A stretch of DNA of 5,949 bases from a virus: IMG/VR virus record IMGVR_UViG_3300045988_009401; one strand, written 5' to 3'. The translations under genes and the position numbers were made by a program. How positions within the stretch are numbered: the stretch's first letter is position 1; every line of letters begins with the position of its first letter. Shown here in pieces: positions 1,559-5,949 of the stretch. The notes beneath the pieces were generated by a model that saw only the letters and a list, made by a program, of their open reading frames with translations, searched no databases and was not told the origin of the DNA.

Positions 1559-1586
1559 TTAAAAAATAGCCGGGATTTCTCCCGGC
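1559..1586 (-). terminator. GC-rich hairpin with a GAAA tetraloop and a U6 tract between VP1 and VP2, a candidate attenuator or terminator.
   Basis: On the + strand, gccggga (1569..1575), tttc, tcccggc (1580..1586) form a 7-bp stem with 6 GC pairs. The minus-strand RNA reads GCCGGGA-GAAA-UCCCGGC followed by UAUUUUUUAA and then the VP2 AUG. The SD-like GAAAGGAGGA at 1588..1597 lies 5' of the hairpin. Confidence 0.55.
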
Positions 1587-1597
1587 ATCCTCCTTTC

Positions 1598-3262
1598 TTA
1601 CAGCTTATACAGTCCCGGCACGCTATAAAGCGGCATTCTGCGCGTGGTATTGTTTGCTACGCGGATTGCACCGAAAAATTGTGGTTCATTCTGTTCGATC
1701 AGTGTTCTTGCAATCTCTGCTTTTCCTTCTACCATCCATTCTTGCGACAGTGTAGGAACGGTTGCGTAGTTATCAGCGTAGTGCCAGAAGTCCAACGTAC
1801 CTTCTGCGTTGCTTCTCATAAGGCCGCTAACGCGGTTCGGTTTCATCCGGTAGTCTGCCCATGCTTCCTGATAGCCGAATGTCTCTTCGTCGGTCGCATC
1901 ACCTGTGAGCATGATCTCCTTCTTTTTTACCGGCTGTTCGCCTAGATTTGCAAACTGCGGCACGTAATAGTCTAGCCTGTCTTGTCTGCTCCAAAAGCGC
2001 TCAAGACCCTGCTGATAGCTGTGATTGTGTCTCACACATGCAACGCCAATTACGAAACCGTGCTCTTCAAAACTTTTTGTGAAAGAGCTTTCGTTGATAG
2101 GTGTAACGGACATTGCGCCTGTTTCACCGATAGGCGTGTCGTTGTTTGCCTGTTGGCCGCTGGTCTGCACGATCTGGTTGATGTTGACATGATATCTGCC
2201 TCCGCCTAGATACTCAGGCACCTGTACCGTTTTATCCGAAATGACAACGTCCCAAATTGCCTGTACCTGCTCACGATATCTGGAACCGCCCCGTGCCAGC
2301 GCCTCATAGTACTGTTGCACGCTGATGGCCTGTCGTAACTGGTTGACAGTTGTTTTTGCTCCTGTTGCTGTTTTGTCTCCTGTAAGATTTACGTACAGAT
2401 TGCCTTGATTTACTTGTGTTCCGCCTGATGTTGTTGCGCCTGTTACTGTTGCCGCACTGCCGCCGCCGCCGTCAATTGTACCTGTTGCAAATCCACTACC
2501 GTTCATGAAGATTGTGCCTTTTGGGTTCAGTCCGGCTAGATCTCTTAATTCTACCGGGTACAATCCACCTAACTGAATTGTCACCTCTGGTCCACGCTGA
2601 GGATAAGGTAAACAGGATGTGAAATAGTCATGAAACTTGTTCACCGGTAAAAGATTACCGCCTGTTACCGCTTCCTGCAGTTCTTTTTCCATCGTGTCTT
2701 TTTCGCCGGTGCTCATGGCGTATATCACATCTTCATCGTCACTTTTCAGGACTGCAGCGTTGCCTACGTTTTCGTCCCTGAAGAACTCGTTCCAGATTTT
2801 CACATACGCTCTGATAGGCAGTGCGTTGATGCTGAAAGGCTTTTTCACCTTCGTAGGTACGCCCATGTAGTCCAGAATGGACTTTTCATCCGGTGCCGGT
2901 TTTTCATTCGTCCCGTTGATTTTGATTTGCGGTACCGTGTAGTTTTTTGTTGGCATCCACGGCCTTTCTTCCACTTCGCCCATGAAATGCTTGAAATTGT
3001 CCCACAGGATCCGGTTAGGACAGTAGAAATAATAGAAATCGATAAAGCTATCGTCCATTACCGGATATTTGGGAGTCGTCATACGGATAATGGCCTGTGT
3101 GTCAACGCTGAACGTATCGCCCGGTAGGACTTCATCCACGTAAAATGGAATTAGTTTTCCTGCGTCAAATGTGGTCAGGATAATTTGGTCTCGATTGAAT
3201 CGCGTTCGGCTTGCTTTCATCTGTGGAATTTGATTAAAATGCCGCTCGTTATTCCTGTTCAT
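1598..3262 (-). CDS. VP1: Major capsid protein VP1 (Microviridae F-like, gokushovirus type), 554 aa.
   Basis: The N-terminal region reads RFNRDQIILTTFDAGKLIPFYVDEVLPGDTF, matching the conserved gokushovirus VP1 signature (TTFDAG.LIP...DEVLPGDTF). The length is typical. The start is ATG at 3262..3260, preceded by GGAAGGAGA eight nt upstream. The stop is TAA at 1600..1598. Confidence 0.95.
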   Translation of the reverse strand: MNRNNERHFNQIPQMKASRTRFNRDQIILTTFDAGKLIPFYVDEVLPGDTFSVDTQAIIRMTTPKYPVMDDSFIDFYYFYCPNRILWDNFKHFMGEVEERPWMPTKNYTVPQIKINGTNEKPAPDEKSILDYMGVPTKVKKPFSINALPIRAYVKIWNEFFRDENVGNAAVLKSDDEDVIYAMSTGEKDTMEKELQEAVTGGNLLPVNKFHDYFTSCLPYPQRGPEVTIQLGGLYPVELRDLAGLNPKGTIFMNGSGFATGTIDGGGGSAATVTGATTSGGTQVNQGNLYVNLTGDKTATGAKTTVNQLRQAISVQQYYEALARGGSRYREQVQAIWDVVISDKTVQVPEYLGGGRYHVNINQIVQTSGQQANNDTPIGETGAMSVTPINESSFTKSFEEHGFVIGVACVRHNHSYQQGLERFWSRQDRLDYYVPQFANLGEQPVKKKEIMLTGDATDEETFGYQEAWADYRMKPNRVSGLMRSNAEGTLDFWHYADNYATVPTLSQEWMVEGKAEIARTLIEQNEPQFFGAIRVANNTTRRMPLYSVPGLYKL

Positions 3263-3647
3263 TTTTCATGTCTCCTTCCTTCGCTGCTTCTTCCGGTGCT
3301 TTCTCCTGCATTTCCTGCAGTGCCAGTGCGTTTGCCTGCGCTGTTGCGATCATTCTGTGATACTCGTGGATGTTCTGCGGCCATTCCGTGATATCTACCT
3401 CTGTGCCGTCCAGCGCTCCCTGTGAAAGACTCTGCATAAACTGCGGGTCAAATGATGCTTTTCGGACAATGTTTTTAATGTCGCATTCATCTGCATAGCT
3501 CTCGATTTCGCCCTGGATGTCGATGCTTTCAGTCTCCTGAAGGTATTCCTCATTTTCTTTGTTTTTTGCCCATACGTATTGTTTACGCTGGGTTTCGCCT
3601 GATGCAGAAAAGAGGGGCGTGCGCCCCTCTTCATATCTCTTATTCAT
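3249..3647 (-). CDS. VP3-like protein (putative internal scaffolding protein), acidic, about 132 aa from the ATG at 3647. The track's longer form starts at TTG 3707.
   Basis: The ORF lies immediately upstream of VP1 and overlaps it by 14 nt. It has an acidic, Glu-rich C-terminus. The ATG at 3647..3645 has the SD GGGAGGG eight nt upstream and sits 2 nt after the stop of the preceding 79-aa gene. The 152-aa form in the ORF track begins with TTG (3707..3705) and would overlap the upstream gene by 68 nt. I do not recognise any motif in it. Confidence 0.5.
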   Translation of the reverse strand: MNKRYEEGRTPLFSASGETQRKQYVWAKNKENEEYLQETESIDIQGEIESYADECDIKNIVRKASFDPQFMQSLSQGALDGTEVDITEWPQNIHEYHRMIATAQANALALQEMQEKAPEEAAKEGDMKNEQE

Positions 3648-3879
3648 GCGGCTTGCCCTCCCATGCCTTTTCCTTGTCGTTCTGAAATTCGCCGGTTTCG
3701 TCTTCAAACTGTGCCAGCTTGTAACCCACGTAATCGGCTGGGGACTGCCCGATGAACGTGTTCTCGTCCTTCTGCATTACGTTGCACATCCGTGCGAATG
3801 TTTCATTGTTTTTGCTTTCACCTACCCATGCGTAGCACTTCGCTACTTTGTCGTAGATACCATAGTAATTGCTAATCAT
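3640..3879 (-). CDS. Hypothetical acidic protein, 79 aa.
   Basis: ATG at 3879..3877. Lys codons of the upstream gene form an AAAGGA SD 7 nt upstream. The stop is TAA at 3642..3640. The gene is tightly coupled to its neighbours. It has no transmembrane segment and no recognisable motif. Confidence 0.5.
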   Translation of the reverse strand: MISNYYGIYDKVAKCYAWVGESKNNETFARMCNVMQKDENTFIGQSPADYVGYKLAQFEDETGEFQNDKEKAWEGKPHE

Positions 3880-4018
3880 CTTTTTTTCCTTTCTTTTAGA
3901 GCCGAATCCCGCCGCGCATAGGTTTCTGGCTCAAGTTGATGCTTTTGGTTTTCCGCGCGGTTACGTTAAACATGCGCTTATCTTTGTTGCCGTTCATGAC
4001 TTTACGATGTCGTGCCAT
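3872..4018 (-). CDS. Small, highly basic Arg/Lys-rich peptide, 48 aa. It is a candidate DNA-binding/packaging protein, analogous to phiX174 J or gokushovirus ORF8.
   Basis: This ORF is absent from the ORF track because it is shorter than 60 aa. I translated it by hand as MARHRKVMNGNKDKRMFNVTRRKTKSINLSQKPMRGGIRLKKKGKKDD. ATG at 4018..4016 with a strong SD, GAGGAGAGGG, 7 nt upstream. The stop TAG at 3874..3872 overlaps the next gene's start region. It fills the otherwise empty 122-nt gap between two genes. Confidence 0.6.
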
Positions 4019-4229
4019 TATAGTACCCTCTCCTCATCAGCTCTAGCTCGATAGCGTTGGCAAAGTTTTTGCACTGCCAGATCTCATCAATCATTTTCTT
4101 TGCGGTTTCTTTTTCGTTAATTTCTCGCAGGAGCTTGTAATCGTTTTGGATTTCTTTATATTTCTTCTCAAGCAGTTCGGATAAATTTTTTTCGGTCTGG
4201 TCTCTGACATTCCATGGTTTTGCAATCAT
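4002..4229 (-). CDS. Hypothetical protein, 75 aa, predicted helical/coiled-coil, Lys/Glu-rich.
   Basis: ATG at 4229..4227 with SD AAGGAG 9 nt upstream. The stop is TAA at 4004..4002. It is tightly packed against its neighbours. No motif recognised. Confidence 0.5.
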   Translation of the reverse strand: MIAKPWNVRDQTEKNLSELLEKKYKEIQNDYKLLREINEKETAKKMIDEIWQCKNFANAIELELMRRGYYNGTTS

Positions 4230-4235
4230 CTTTGT

Positions 4236-4352
4236 TTACTCCTTTTCGTTCGGCTGGTCGTGTAGGGCATGGTAGATCTCGTCCAGCTTTTCCAGAATCT
4301 GCATCATGATTTTGATAGCCTGTTTGACGTCTTTAATACTGATAAGAGCCAT
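4236..4352 (-). CDS. Small hypothetical peptide, 38 aa (MALISIKDVKQAIKIMMQILEKLDEIYHALHDQPNEKE). Alternatively a 65-aa form from the ATG at 4433, which overlaps the peptidase gene.
   Basis: The ATG at 4352..4350 lies 4 nt after the peptidase stop codon (4359..4357), with SD AAGGGGGT 8 nt upstream. The 65-aa form in the track starts at the ATG at 4433, which sits inside the peptidase coding sequence in another frame. Confidence 0.4.
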   Translation of the reverse strand: MALISIKDVKQAIKIMMQILEKLDEIYHALHDQPNEKE

Positions 4353-4356
4353 TTGC

Positions 4357-4746
4357 TTACACCCCCTTTCTGTATGTTTTGGTGCGCGTGTCGATGTGCA
4401 CCCATGTATTGTATACGATGATGCCGCATCCATTTGGGATGATTTTCTTCAGTTTGTTGGCAATTTCTTTTGCGGTCATGCCATCAACTCGAATGTCTGC
4501 GGCCATTCCCCGCATGTGATATGAGTATTTTGCACCGCCCACCGCTTTATTCCTTGTCGGTGTCCGGTATCCGCTGTTTATGTGTACCGGCTTTCCAACT
4601 TGGTTTCTGAGAATGTCCAGAATCGATACAAGGTAGTCATCTATGAAAACTATCTGAGAACCGTCTCTGCAAGCAAATTCCTTTACTTTGAAGTGCTTTC
4701 CAACGTTTTCGTTTGCGTCTGTGTCCATGATATAGCATTTAATCAT
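4357..4746 (-). CDS. Zinc metallopeptidase of the Peptidase_M15_3 / M15A family (VanY/YcbK-like peptidoglycan peptidase, a putative endolysin). About 129 aa from the ATG at 4746; the track form starts at TTG 4755.
   Basis: The translation contains the family signature SGYRTPTRNKAVGGAKYSYHMRGMAADI ... WVHIDTR. That is an SxHxxGxAxD zinc-binding block plus a C-terminal HxD/H ligand, preceded by FACRDG. The ATG at 4746..4744 follows AAAGGA. The track ORF starts 9 nt upstream at TTG 4755..4753. The stop is TAA at 4359..4357. Confidence 0.85.
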   Translation of the reverse strand: MIKCYIMDTDANENVGKHFKVKEFACRDGSQIVFIDDYLVSILDILRNQVGKPVHINSGYRTPTRNKAVGGAKYSYHMRGMAADIRVDGMTAKEIANKLKKIIPNGCGIIVYNTWVHIDTRTKTYRKGV

Positions 4747-4751
4747 TCTTG

Positions 4752-4970
4752 TCAATTCCTTTTTACTACAGCTACGTCTTCTAAGAATTTTTTTTCTACC
4801 TTGTACAGTCCATCTTCGTCTAGCTCATTTCCTAACTCGAATGCGTATTTTCTGCAGATGATTTTATCACTCTTCCTGTATAGCTTTTCGTAGTTGTACT
4901 TTTTTCCCATCATGTATCCGAAAAAATCGAGTTCTATATAATTTTGTTCGCGCACGTAGACTTTTTTCAT
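4752..4970 (-). CDS. Hypothetical protein, 72 aa, the first gene downstream of the promoter.
   Basis: ATG at 4970..4968 with GGAAGG SD 8 nt upstream, lying 33 nt downstream of the predicted -10. The stop is TGA at 4754..4752, 6 nt before the peptidase ATG. The protein is Lys/Tyr/Glu-rich with no transmembrane segment and no recognised motif. Confidence 0.5.
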   Translation of the reverse strand: MKKVYVREQNYIELDFFGYMMGKKYNYEKLYRKSDKIICRKYAFELGNELDEDGLYKVEKKFLEDVAVVKRN

Positions 4971-5031: not shown

Positions 5032-5076
5032 TCTTTTCGTCTCTTTGTAATAATTTGTAACCTTTCCTAGGACAGG

Positions 5077-5160
5077 AGCGCCGTTAGACTCCCGCCCTCA
5101 GGCGCTCATTTTGATAAGACCGGCAAGGCCGGTCAGACTGTCGGCGCGCTCCGTCAGACT
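5077..5160. repeat. GC-rich cluster of inverted and direct repeats upstream of the promoter, operator-like.
   Basis: An inverted repeat gagcgcc (5077..5083) / ggcgctc (5101..5107) has a 17-bp spacer. A second inverted repeat gaccggc-aag-gccggtc spans 5118..5134. Direct repeats GTCAGACT occur at 5132..5139 and 5153..5160, 21 bp apart, and a related GTTAGACT at 5083..5090. Confidence 0.6.
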
Positions 5161-5196
5161 TTGTCGTCTCCGCTCACCCTACTTTATTTGCCGTTC

Positions 5197-5352
5197 TTTC
5201 AACAGTTTCCACCGACTTTTCAACATTTCAACATTGTTAAACTTTATCACAACAGAGTGTTTCAACATTTCAACAAGTTTTCAACAAATCTTTCAACGTT
5301 TGTTTTTACCTTTTTCTAACGTTTTAACGTTCAAATTTATCTGTTTTCAACT
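5197..5352. repeat. Iteron-like array of about 9 TTTCAAC(A/G) octamers.
   Basis: TTTCAACA occurs at 5197, 5218 and 5226 (a tandem pair), at 5260 and 5268 (a tandem pair), and at 5279. TTTCAACG occurs at 5291, degenerate TTTTAACG and TTCAAA at 5322-5336, and TTTCAACT at 5345. The pattern is not CRISPR-like: the units are 8 bp and there are no spacers. Confidence 0.7.
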
Positions 5353-5397
5353 TTTCCACGTACTCTACTACTACGGCTACAACAAGTTATATAATAT

Positions 5398-5443
5398 TAC
5401 GCGTGCGCGTGTGCGCGCGTCTACGCGTGCGCGTGTGCGCGCG
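5398..5443. repeat. Tandem direct repeat, 2 x 21 nt, of perfectly alternating purine-pyrimidine CG/TG sequence (Z-DNA-prone) separated by tct.
   Basis: acgcgtgcgcgtgtgcgcgcg appears at 5399..5419 and again at 5423..5443. Each copy alternates Pu-Py strictly over 21-22 nt. The AT-rich ttatataatatt lies immediately 5' at 5387..5398. Confidence 0.8.
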
Positions 5444-5481
5444 AATAAAGCCCAGTACCTTACTTGATAGGTACTGGGCTT
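5443..5481 (-). terminator. 13-bp hairpin 11 nt after the VP4 stop. It is a candidate terminator and/or an origin hairpin.
   Basis: aagcccagtacct (5448..5460) and aggtactgggctt (5469..5481) form a perfect stem with an 8-nt loop, tacttgat. On the minus-strand RNA the stem is followed by UAUUCG, which gives a weak U-run, UUUAUU. The loop together with the adjacent base reads ACTTGATA on the + strand. Confidence 0.4.
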
Positions 5482-5492
5482 GGTGACACCGA

Positions 5493-5949
5493 TTAGAGTA
5501 TACCGCTTTTTTTCGTTTGTTTTTTGGTAACGCGTTCTTTTGCTTCTAATTGTGTTTTGTAATCTTGTCCTTCCAACTGCAGTCTTTTCTGCTCTATGGC
5601 TTTTCTCTGTCTGTTTTGCTTGATCCTCCACAGCCTTTCCGGGTTTTCTTTTTCCATCATCTTTTCATAGTATCGCGGTATTTGCGCCTTTTTGCCATTA
5701 GTGCATTGAATGTAGCCTTGTCTCCATATTTCTTCTTTGTGCTCTTGATAGTAAAGATCACCCAGTCCCGGCTTAAGTGACATACACGCGAACGGTTTTT
5801 GTTGACCTAGATCATAATATGCATTTGCTTTCTTTCCGTCAATTTCATACATTTTTTTTGTAACATACCCTGCAACATATCTATATGTTTCAGGTGTTGC
5901 TTGTGCGATCTGAATTTGACCGTTTCCCCATAGCTTTTCTAGCCATTCA
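5493..5949 (-). CDS. VP4: Replication initiator VP4, C-terminal part. Positions 5851..5949 duplicate 1..99, so this is the same gene as feature 1..569 read through the circular junction. The stop codon TAA is at 5495..5493.
   Basis: The 119-aa ORF 5493..5852 of the track extends in frame, with no stop, through the 99-bp terminal redundancy. It contains KPFACMSLKPGLG, typical of Microviridae Rep C-termini. The ATG at 5852 that the track used as a start is an internal Met. Confidence 0.88.
   Translation of the reverse strand, partial: EWLEKLWGNGQIQIAQATPETYRYVAGYVTKKMYEIDGKKANAYYDLGQQKPFACMSLKPGLGDLYYQEHKEEIWRQGYIQCTNGKKAQIPRYYEKMMEKENPERLWRIKQNRQRKAIEQKRLQLEGQDYKTQLEAKERVTKKQTKKSGIL
5851..5949. 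repeat. 99-bp terminal redundancy, an exact copy of 1..99. It marks the circular genome closure.
   Basis: I compared the two ends base by base: 5851..5949 is identical to 1..99. Confidence 0.97.

Follow-up and report, generated by a model that had tools for sequence, protein, structure and literature searches.

Does a run of tiny genes lying directly behind a viral promoter encode host-takeover and anti-defence functions, or does it belong to the ordinary backbone of the virus? The question is raised by the IMG/VR virus record IMGVR_UViG_3300045988_009401, a stretch of 5,949 nucleotides (nt) that is referred to here, at its full length, as the window. Six small open reading frames (ORFs) precede the gene of the scaffolding protein VP3, and an original prediction, made from the letters of the window, had taken four of them for candidate early genes that act against the host. 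The reading proposed here, which we hold with somewhat better than even confidence, is that the block is a composite of three evolutionary layers, where two of the genes, ORF38 and ORF75, would be core helpers of assembly or replication and another, ORF72, would be optional.

The window is a gut gokushovirus genome, a circle of 5,850 nt. Bases 1-99 and 5851-5949 form a perfect 99-nt direct terminal repeat, and the frame of the replication-initiator protein VP4 continues across the ends (on the minus strand, from ~610 to 1 and then from 5949 to 5493); the window is therefore taken as a circular genome with an assembly overlap. At the nucleotide level it shares 73-85% identity, over 80-93% of the query, with many gokushoviruses in GenBank that come from the faeces of pigs, monkeys and humans. 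The long ORFs all lie on the minus strand, where the order is non-coding region, promoter, ORF72, peptidase, ORF38, ORF75, ORF40, ORF79, VP3, VP1, VP2 and VP4. This matches VP4-VP5-VP3-VP1-VP2, the gene order of gut-type gokushoviruses (Roux et al., 2012, PMC3394797). The block in question and its borders are as follows.

5031-5003, minus strand: candidate sigma-70-like promoter, TTGAAA-17-(TG)TATAAT, directly upstream of ORF72 and the best consensus match in the window (11/12).
4970-4752, minus strand: ORF72, 72 residues, an orphan in a hypervariable promoter-proximal slot.
4746-4357, minus strand: M15_3 peptidase, a putative endolysin of 129 residues from its ATG.
4352-4236, minus strand: ORF38, 38 residues, with a coiled-coil heptad pattern; lineage-core gene.
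4229-4002, minus strand: ORF75, 75 residues, predicted to form a single long helix; lineage-core gene.
4018-3896, minus strand: ORF40, assigned to VP8, a J-like basic DNA-binding and packaging peptide.
3879-3640, minus strand: ORF79, assigned to VP5 (ORF5 family), a core non-structural gokushovirus protein.
3647-3249, minus strand: VP3, internal scaffolding protein (Pfam Chlamy_scaf, 6.3e-08; phrog_24309, 2.2e-66).

Are these short frames really genes? From stop to start, the gaps in block order are 5, 4, 6, -17 (an overlap) and 16 nt, and VP3 overlaps ORF79 by 8 nt. The tight coupling that had been described, with spacings of 2-6 nt or overlaps, thus holds for the overlaps and the short gaps of 4-6 nt, but not for the one spacer of 16 nt. 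As had also been claimed, each gene has its own Shine-Dalgarno (SD)-like sequence, a purine-rich stretch 5-12 nt upstream of the start: GAAAGGAAGG, AAAGGA, AAAGGGGGTG, AAAGGAG, GAGGAGAGGG and GAAAGGA. The most likely peptidase start is the ATG at 4746; an alternative TTG at 4755 would give 132 residues. For VP3, the phrog_24309 match begins at residue 21 of a longer TTG-initiated ORF, which is the ATG at 3647.

The frames were compared with those of 105 loci of relatives, gathered from GenBank, IMG/VR and public assemblies; 80 of these, from IMG/VR, were picked as the best ORF38 matches, and ORF38 identity in the set is thereby inflated. For the five ORFs downstream of ORF72, 98-104 of 99-104 copies have 85-125% of the length in the window, and nine further copies of ORF72 are of 72 residues each. 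Median ratios of non-synonymous to synonymous divergence (dN/dS; pairwise, by the method of Nei and Gojobori, NG86) are 0.165 for ORF72, 0.17 for the peptidase, 0.14 for ORF38, 0.15 for ORF75, 0.10 for ORF40 and 0.12 for ORF79, with the structural genes VP1, VP3 and VP2 at 0.11, 0.16 and 0.23. Plus-strand ORFs of the region were considered as genes and ruled out, as stops interrupt them in many relatives. The six small ORFs are thus genuine coding genes under purifying selection. On this point the original prediction is borne out: the frames are intact and the lengths kept in ~100 relatives, at dN/dS values of 0.10-0.17. Its argument from an AT-rich composition applies to ORF72 and ORF75 (GC fractions of 0.35 and 0.39) but not to the other small ORFs, which at 0.44-0.49 are similar to VP1 (0.48). 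The complete block of peptidase, ORF38, ORF75, VP8 and VP5 is present in 88 of the 105 loci.

Which of the genes are already known? Four of the proteins had been described as without recognisable motifs, and this stands for ORF72, ORF38 and ORF75, which have no known family. It does not stand for the acidic 79-residue protein, which had been counted among them: ORF79 matches Pfam PF20577 (Phage_ORF5) at 7.8e-12, its score of 45.1 bits being above the cut-off of 27, and phrog_1670, annotated as a DNA-binding protein, at 1.7e-18. A family profile built from ~90 copies finds Vp5 of phiMH2K (1.2e-8) and ORF5 of Chp2 (2.1e-5), and the GenBank annotation of the counterpart in close relatives is 'similar to VP5'. 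By these matches ORF79 is identified as VP5, a core gokushovirus gene. Gokushovirus VP5 is treated as an analogue of phiX174 protein C, a role given by analogy (PMC7062461, PMC11281519). In the GenBank record KT264799, a coding sequence labelled 'VP5' (2813-3019) is a 68-residue helical protein similar to ORF75, and the true VP5 (80 residues, 3232-3474, profile E = 6.6e-34) is unannotated beneath the 5' end of an over-extended 'VP3' coding sequence.

The basic peptide had been correctly recognised as J-like, and the peptidase (PF08291) had been correctly identified too. ORF40 matches phrog_10695 at 4e-10, and its family profile matches ORF8 of Chp2 (2.4e-5) and the J-like protein of phiMH2K (1.2e-3). 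The peptide has an isoelectric point (pI) of 12.0 with 12 lysine and arginine residues in 40, and its C-terminus, PMRGGIRL, is nearly invariant among 104 copies. ORF40 is accordingly assigned, on profile matches, to VP8, a presumptive DNA-binding and packaging peptide.

What, then, of ORF38 and ORF75? Searches of Pfam, PHROGs, NCBIfam, PADLOC and the sequences of the PDB gave no significant match for either of them, nor for ORF72. The matches of the three that did appear in the first four libraries were set aside as noise, e.g. coiled-coil families and a Cas7 match that covered 25 residues with 15 bits; ORF75 also resembles NCBIfam RepC_IncLM in 5 of 15 family members, but the 17 bits scored are below the cut-off of 80 and the likeness is probably compositional. 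Yet both are abundant in sequence collections. For ORF75, a collection of 5.8 billion proteins contains 1,413 clusters at 90% identity, and the 120 clusters listed are of 75 residues each, mostly from contigs of 5.4-6.2 kb. It is found in 26 GenBank records, mostly unannotated, and its exact sequence is already in nr as a Microviridae hypothetical protein. ORF38 is represented by 481 protein-database clusters (cluster search with a 40-residue extension) and 222 IMG/VR contigs (with alignment). It is conserved in 31 GenBank records and annotated in none of them; the features listed under the match are overlapping neighbours. Profile searches found no homologue of either gene in Chp2 and phiMH2K, and a scan of 185,579 bacterial and archaeal species-representative genomes found no relative of ORF38 or of the peptidase. 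As far as these searches go, ORF38 and ORF75 are specific to a mammalian-gut gokushovirus clade.

The position of the two genes is informative. Seven relatives lack the peptidase (L012 and L107-L112 of the comparison set: KT264799, MG945157, KT264798, MG945135, KT264788, MG945780 and MG945382), and in all seven ORF38, VP8, VP5 and a homologue of ORF75 are still kept together in a single block. Two orders occur there, ORF38-ORF75-VP8 and ORF75-ORF38-VP8, and in both the pair is immediately 5' of VP8, usually with overlaps. The 3' end of ORF75 overlaps the start of VP8 by 17 nt in the window, an overlap that is kept in L110-L112. Divergence was correlated pairwise in the 63 genomes that have all nine genes: that of ORF75 follows VP4 (rho 0.60), VP3 (0.57) and VP8 (0.51), and that of ORF38 follows VP4 (0.52). 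Found in nearly all relatives, at syntenic positions and with a divergence that follows the backbone, ORF38 and ORF75 behave as part of that backbone rather than as patchy accessory genes; they are lineage-core genes that do not belong with the peptidase cassette.

Both proteins are helical by prediction. The AlphaFold2 (AF2) model of ORF75 is one unbroken helix over residues 6-66, with a mean pLDDT (predicted local distance difference test) of 87; conserved parts are an N-terminal WN(V/I)RDQ, a central KYKEI and a C-terminal AKK.I.EIW..K.FAN.IE.E..RR. ORF38 shows a heptad a/d pattern over residues 2-30 (I6, V9, I13, M16, L20, L23, Y27 and L30); its core, ..KLD.IYHAL.D, hardly varies among copies, while its tail does. 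The two are probably oligomerising or partner-binding helices. ORF38 has a pI of 5.5 (7 aspartate and glutamate residues against 5 lysine and arginine) and ORF75 a pI of 7.8, and neither is cationic or strongly acidic. With ORF72 at pI 8.9, the suggestion that DNA mimics are to be found among the three has no basis in their charge.

The peptidase has a different history. It matches Pfam PF08291 at 6.2e-24 and phrog_894 (endolysin) at 7.8e-45, and the zinc-binding and catalytic motifs (H-x6-D ... H) are intact, SYHMRGMAAD and WVH(I/F)D being kept in 29 of 29 alleles. These features identify it as a putative M15_3 endolysin. An M15_3 peptidase gene was described in human-gut gokushoviruses, and its product proposed as an endolysin, by Roux et al. 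(2012, PMC3394797). Their peptidase phylogeny, together with the strong SD sites of the block, suggests a host among Firmicutes such as Faecalibacterium. In genomes with a VP4 that is ~90% identical, peptidase identity to the window ranges from 42 to 94%, and its divergence is uncorrelated with that of every other gene (rho <= 0.24, the 63 genomes); because of these two properties the gene is regarded as a mobile, mosaic cassette. It has been inserted ahead of a vertically inherited quartet, ORF38-ORF75-VP8-VP5. At the junction, the final peptidase codons (RKGV-stop, AGAAAGGGGGTGTAA) double as the SD sequence of ORF38; ..YRKGV-stop ends nearly all peptidase alleles, with slight differences in L002 and L014. 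How the enzyme reaches the cell wall is a relevant question, as the coding-strand ORFs of the block of at least 25 residues have no hydrophobic segment that might be a holin or export signal, and no signal peptide was seen by eye in the peptidase. On the minus strand of the whole window there is no ORF with a transmembrane-like segment beside the M15 peptidase.

ORF72 has the patchy, hot-spot distribution expected of anti-defence genes, which ORF38 and ORF75 do not show. It has 19 clusters at 90% identity, as against 1,413 for ORF75, and is present in roughly 1% of relatives. There is no match to it in GenBank phage records, and a deep profile search of 1.84 billion representatives found only three real clusters at 50% identity, none outside the phage family; a single 581-residue match was rejected as repetitive and spurious. 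One copy is in a distant microvirus, L021 (IMGVR_UViG_3300045988_053242, 3763-4645), whose VP1 and VP4 are 39% and 41% identical to those of the window. It carries ORF72 (73% identity), the peptidase (61%) and ORF38 (74%), in the order ORF72-peptidase-VP8-ORF38, which suggests that recombination has moved this stretch between gokushoviruses that are only distantly related.

What occupies the place of ORF72 in other genomes? The slot was defined as the interval from the VP4 stop to the first conserved gene, and SD-led ORFs of at least 40 residues were counted in 100 relatives. It is empty in 59; the other 41 hold one or two ORFs from at least 10 unrelated families, and a leader of one kind, the AGAAAGGAAGGTG type, usually precedes them. 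Apparent reading frames of the MLKHSVVLKFNNVEMLK.. type were not accepted, as they are a conserved repeat-rich non-coding region in translation and have no SD sequence. ORF72 is thus one cargo of a hypervariable promoter-proximal slot, and the only one of the six genes that looks accessory. It is plausibly a putative host-interaction gene of an optional kind, e.g. for superinfection exclusion, anti-defence or the tuning of host range. That the slot as a whole, with ORF72 and at least 10 unrelated families of 50-130 residues, is a hot spot of accessory genes for such functions is a more doubtful proposition, and we give it low confidence. If true, this would be the first report of an island of that kind from single-stranded DNA microviruses.

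The original prediction placed a promoter upstream of the cassette, and the candidate at 5031-5003 agrees with it; 57 of 100 relatives have a similar motif somewhere in the interval from the VP4 stop to the start of ORF38. A second promoter-like site, TTGACA-17-TATCAT (11/12 matches, 4727-4755, minus strand), lies across the junction of ORF72 and the peptidase. If functional, it would start transcription within the first codons of the peptidase, but it may be a chance match.

These results can be assembled into the following scheme. The region is the promoter-proximal half of a single long minus-strand gene array, which would be transcribed in its entirety from the promoter at 5031-5003. Its first layer is the variable slot behind the promoter and a conserved SD leader, which here holds ORF72; its second, the horizontally mobile M15_3 peptidase gene; and its third, the core quartet ORF38-ORF75-VP8-VP5, whose close or overlapping frames run into VP3 and VP1. 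ORF38, with a helix of ~30 residues, and ORF75, with one of ~60, would be small non-structural helpers of replication, packaging or procapsid assembly. They would act alongside VP8 (J-like), VP5 (C-like) and VP3 (B-like), and be made together with them by virtue of the close or overlapping frames. What favours a helper role is that the two genes directly precede VP8 in either order and that they co-diverge with the backbone. Taken by itself, the assignment of the two proteins to replication, packaging or procapsid assembly is tentative, roughly a one-in-three proposition.

Several considerations weigh against this scheme. Synteny, close or overlapping frames and co-divergence, on which the helper role is based, are weak discriminators within a single gene array. 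Chp2, phiMH2K and the six-gene Escherichia coli prophages (PMC7062461) are without ORF38 and ORF75, and the genes are therefore dispensable for the basic gokushovirus cycle. A conserved host-takeover factor acting on a conserved host target would leave the same evolutionary pattern. The conservation of ORF38 is also less exceptional than it seems: the median identity of 89% over the 105 loci is an inflated figure, 80 of them having been chosen by their ORF38 match, and in the GenBank set, for which whole-genome similarity was the criterion, ORF38, with a median of 85%, is on a par with VP4 (89%) and VP1 (82%), and ORF75 varies more (73%). Finally, no structural match was found that would give an activity to ORF38, ORF75 or ORF72.

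Could ORF38 and ORF75 then be conserved takeover factors that bind the host replisome, RNA polymerase or division apparatus? Of the alternatives this survives best, although it is unlikely. Strong purifying selection and high conservation are what such factors would display, helical coiled-coil peptides are typical binders, and the absence of both genes from minimal gokushoviruses might reflect a host-specific adaptation of the gut lineage. No similarity to known host-targeting phage proteins was found, however, and the fixed place 5' of VP8 in both orders points to a virion or DNA-packaging module.

The original proposal was broader, in that ORF72, ORF38, ORF75 and the 79-residue protein were all seen as early host-takeover or anti-defence genes. 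Part of its logic was that the genes come first behind the promoter. Microviruses such as phiX174 have no early/late programme of expression; levels are set by the strength of promoters, terminators and ribosome-binding sites. Without a temporal programme, proximity to a promoter implies abundance and not an 'early' function, and the argument transfers poorly. The proposal is also at odds with the identity of one of its members, VP5, and with the near-universal presence of ORF38 and ORF75 at fixed, syntenic positions by VP8, with a divergence like that of the backbone. None of ORF72, ORF38 and ORF75 is strongly acidic, and none matches a known anti-defence family in the libraries searched, among which there was no dedicated anti-defence library. 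What speaks for the idea is that the ORFs are small and near the promoter, that three have no homologue of known function and that ORF72 is in a hypervariable slot; moreover, some microviruses have accessory methyltransferases that are thought to evade restriction (PMC9239249). We consider it improbable for the set of four.

It is equally improbable that the function of ORF72 is bound up with the peptidase, for instance by inhibiting it, chaperoning it or targeting it to the wall. No more than 5-6 nt separate the end of ORF72 from the start of the peptidase in any of the copies seen, and Roux et al. (PMC3394797) reported unknown ORFs beside 5 of 11 microvirus peptidase genes. But ~99% of the peptidase-bearing relatives do without ORF72, it is found with three different peptidase alleles, and unrelated families occupy the same position.

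The chance that ORF38 and/or ORF75 are lysis accessories of the peptidase (a holin substitute, membrane disruptor or timing regulator) is slimmer again. Both are retained in the seven genomes without the enzyme, whose divergence is uncorrelated with theirs; they have no cationic amphipathic character and no transmembrane segment, and no hydrophobic segment was detected in any of the small ORFs (highest 19-residue Kyte-Doolittle mean, 1.09). This has to be set against their location directly downstream of a putative endolysin here, in a genome with no holin-like gene anywhere. The idea that some of the tiny ORFs, ORF38 especially, are not genes and only happen to lie open across a conserved cis-acting element of DNA or RNA can be practically dismissed: ORF38 is very short and goes unannotated in its 31 GenBank records, but its synonymous divergence is normal (pS 0.67) and its non-synonymous divergence low, so that conservation is at the protein level with no hidden cis element, 101 of 102 copies keep the length and the start, an SD sequence of its own precedes it, an Rfam search gave no match and the opposite-strand frames decay.

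Other features of the window lie outside the block or at its borders.

~5480-5032, minus strand: repeat-rich non-coding region upstream of the promoter.
5445-5478, minus strand: terminator-like GC-rich hairpin after the VP4 stop, seen by eye.
3610-3631, flagged by the scan on the plus strand only: terminator-like GC-rich hairpin, GAAGAGGGGCGCACGCCCCTCTTTTCT, directly after the VP5 stop and within the first codons of VP3.
1569-1586, minus strand: terminator-like GC-rich hairpin after VP1, followed by TATTTTTT.

The hairpins may be attenuators or mRNA-stability elements. In the non-coding region there are iterons of the TTTCAACATTTCAACA type (GTTGAAA) at 5218-5233, 5260-5275 and 5345-5360, and a CG-rich 22-nt unit, TACGCGTGCGCGTGTGCGCGCG, in two tandem copies at 5398-5443. 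Both kinds of repeat are also found in relatives, where they give rise to spurious 'MLKHSVVLKFNNVEMLK' ORFs. The stretch from 5032 to 5480 may serve as an origin or in regulation.

For all the abundance of gut gokushoviruses, it is hardly understood which hosts they infect, how they lyse them and what their small genes do. The present analysis removes a false lead, as most of the 'mystery cassette' is gokushovirus backbone, and narrows the questions to the roles of ORF38 and ORF75, the route of the peptidase to the wall and the slot as a site of host-interaction genes. It offers a modest lead only, and nothing in it overturns current understanding.

How does the block compare with known systems? 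The closest are the GenBank gut gokushoviruses with an M15_3 gene (MG945430, MG945383, MZ821031, KX513877 and KT264791-3), which have the same peptidase, ORF38, ORF75, VP8 and VP5 and the same order, VP4-(peptidase)-VP5-VP3-VP1-VP2. ORF72 in the slot is a feature of the genome described here and is in none of those records. More distant are the Chlamydia phage Chp2 and the Bdellovibrio phage phiMH2K. ORF5 and ORF8 of the former, and Vp5 and the J-like protein of the latter, are homologues of ORF79 and ORF40 by profile, whereas neither phage has homologues of ORF38, ORF75, ORF72 or the peptidase; their genomes are of ~4.6 kb, as compared with 5.85 kb here.

In phiX174, a C-D-(E)-J block is directly upstream of the capsid gene F. 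The likeness to it is positional: the capsid gene is preceded by genes for a small replication-switch protein, for helical non-structural proteins and for lysis, and by that of the basic DNA-packaging peptide. It does not extend to sequence for ORF38 and ORF75, as neither is similar to phiX174 D, C, K or E in Pfam and PHROGs at E <= 1. Lysis differs as well, with a putative peptidase in this genome and, in phiX174, an MraY inhibitor that has a membrane helix; an E-like lysis protein or holin was not found, there being no transmembrane stretch in ORF72, ORF38 or ORF75 and no match to a Pfam microvirus lysis family. Analogies between phiX174 and gokushoviruses have been restated elsewhere (PMC11281519).

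For the slot, and only as an analogy, plasmid leading regions can be considered, where accessory or anti-defence hot spots lie at the end of the element that is expressed first (PMC11541004); the slot, too, is near its promoter and has many unrelated small ORFs, gained and lost among close relatives. The slot ORFs match no known anti-defence family. Among microviruses, accessory repertoires are small and include peptidases and putative anti-restriction methyltransferases, and small proteins (mean 65 residues, function unknown) connect genomes across families (Kirchberger et al., 2022, PMC9239249). Five of the six genes are either already described (the peptidase, VP5 and VP8) or members of large public families of 'hypothetical proteins'. 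What is modestly new is ORF38 as a gene missed by all 31 records, the place of ORF38 and ORF75 in the backbone, and the variable slot behind the promoter.

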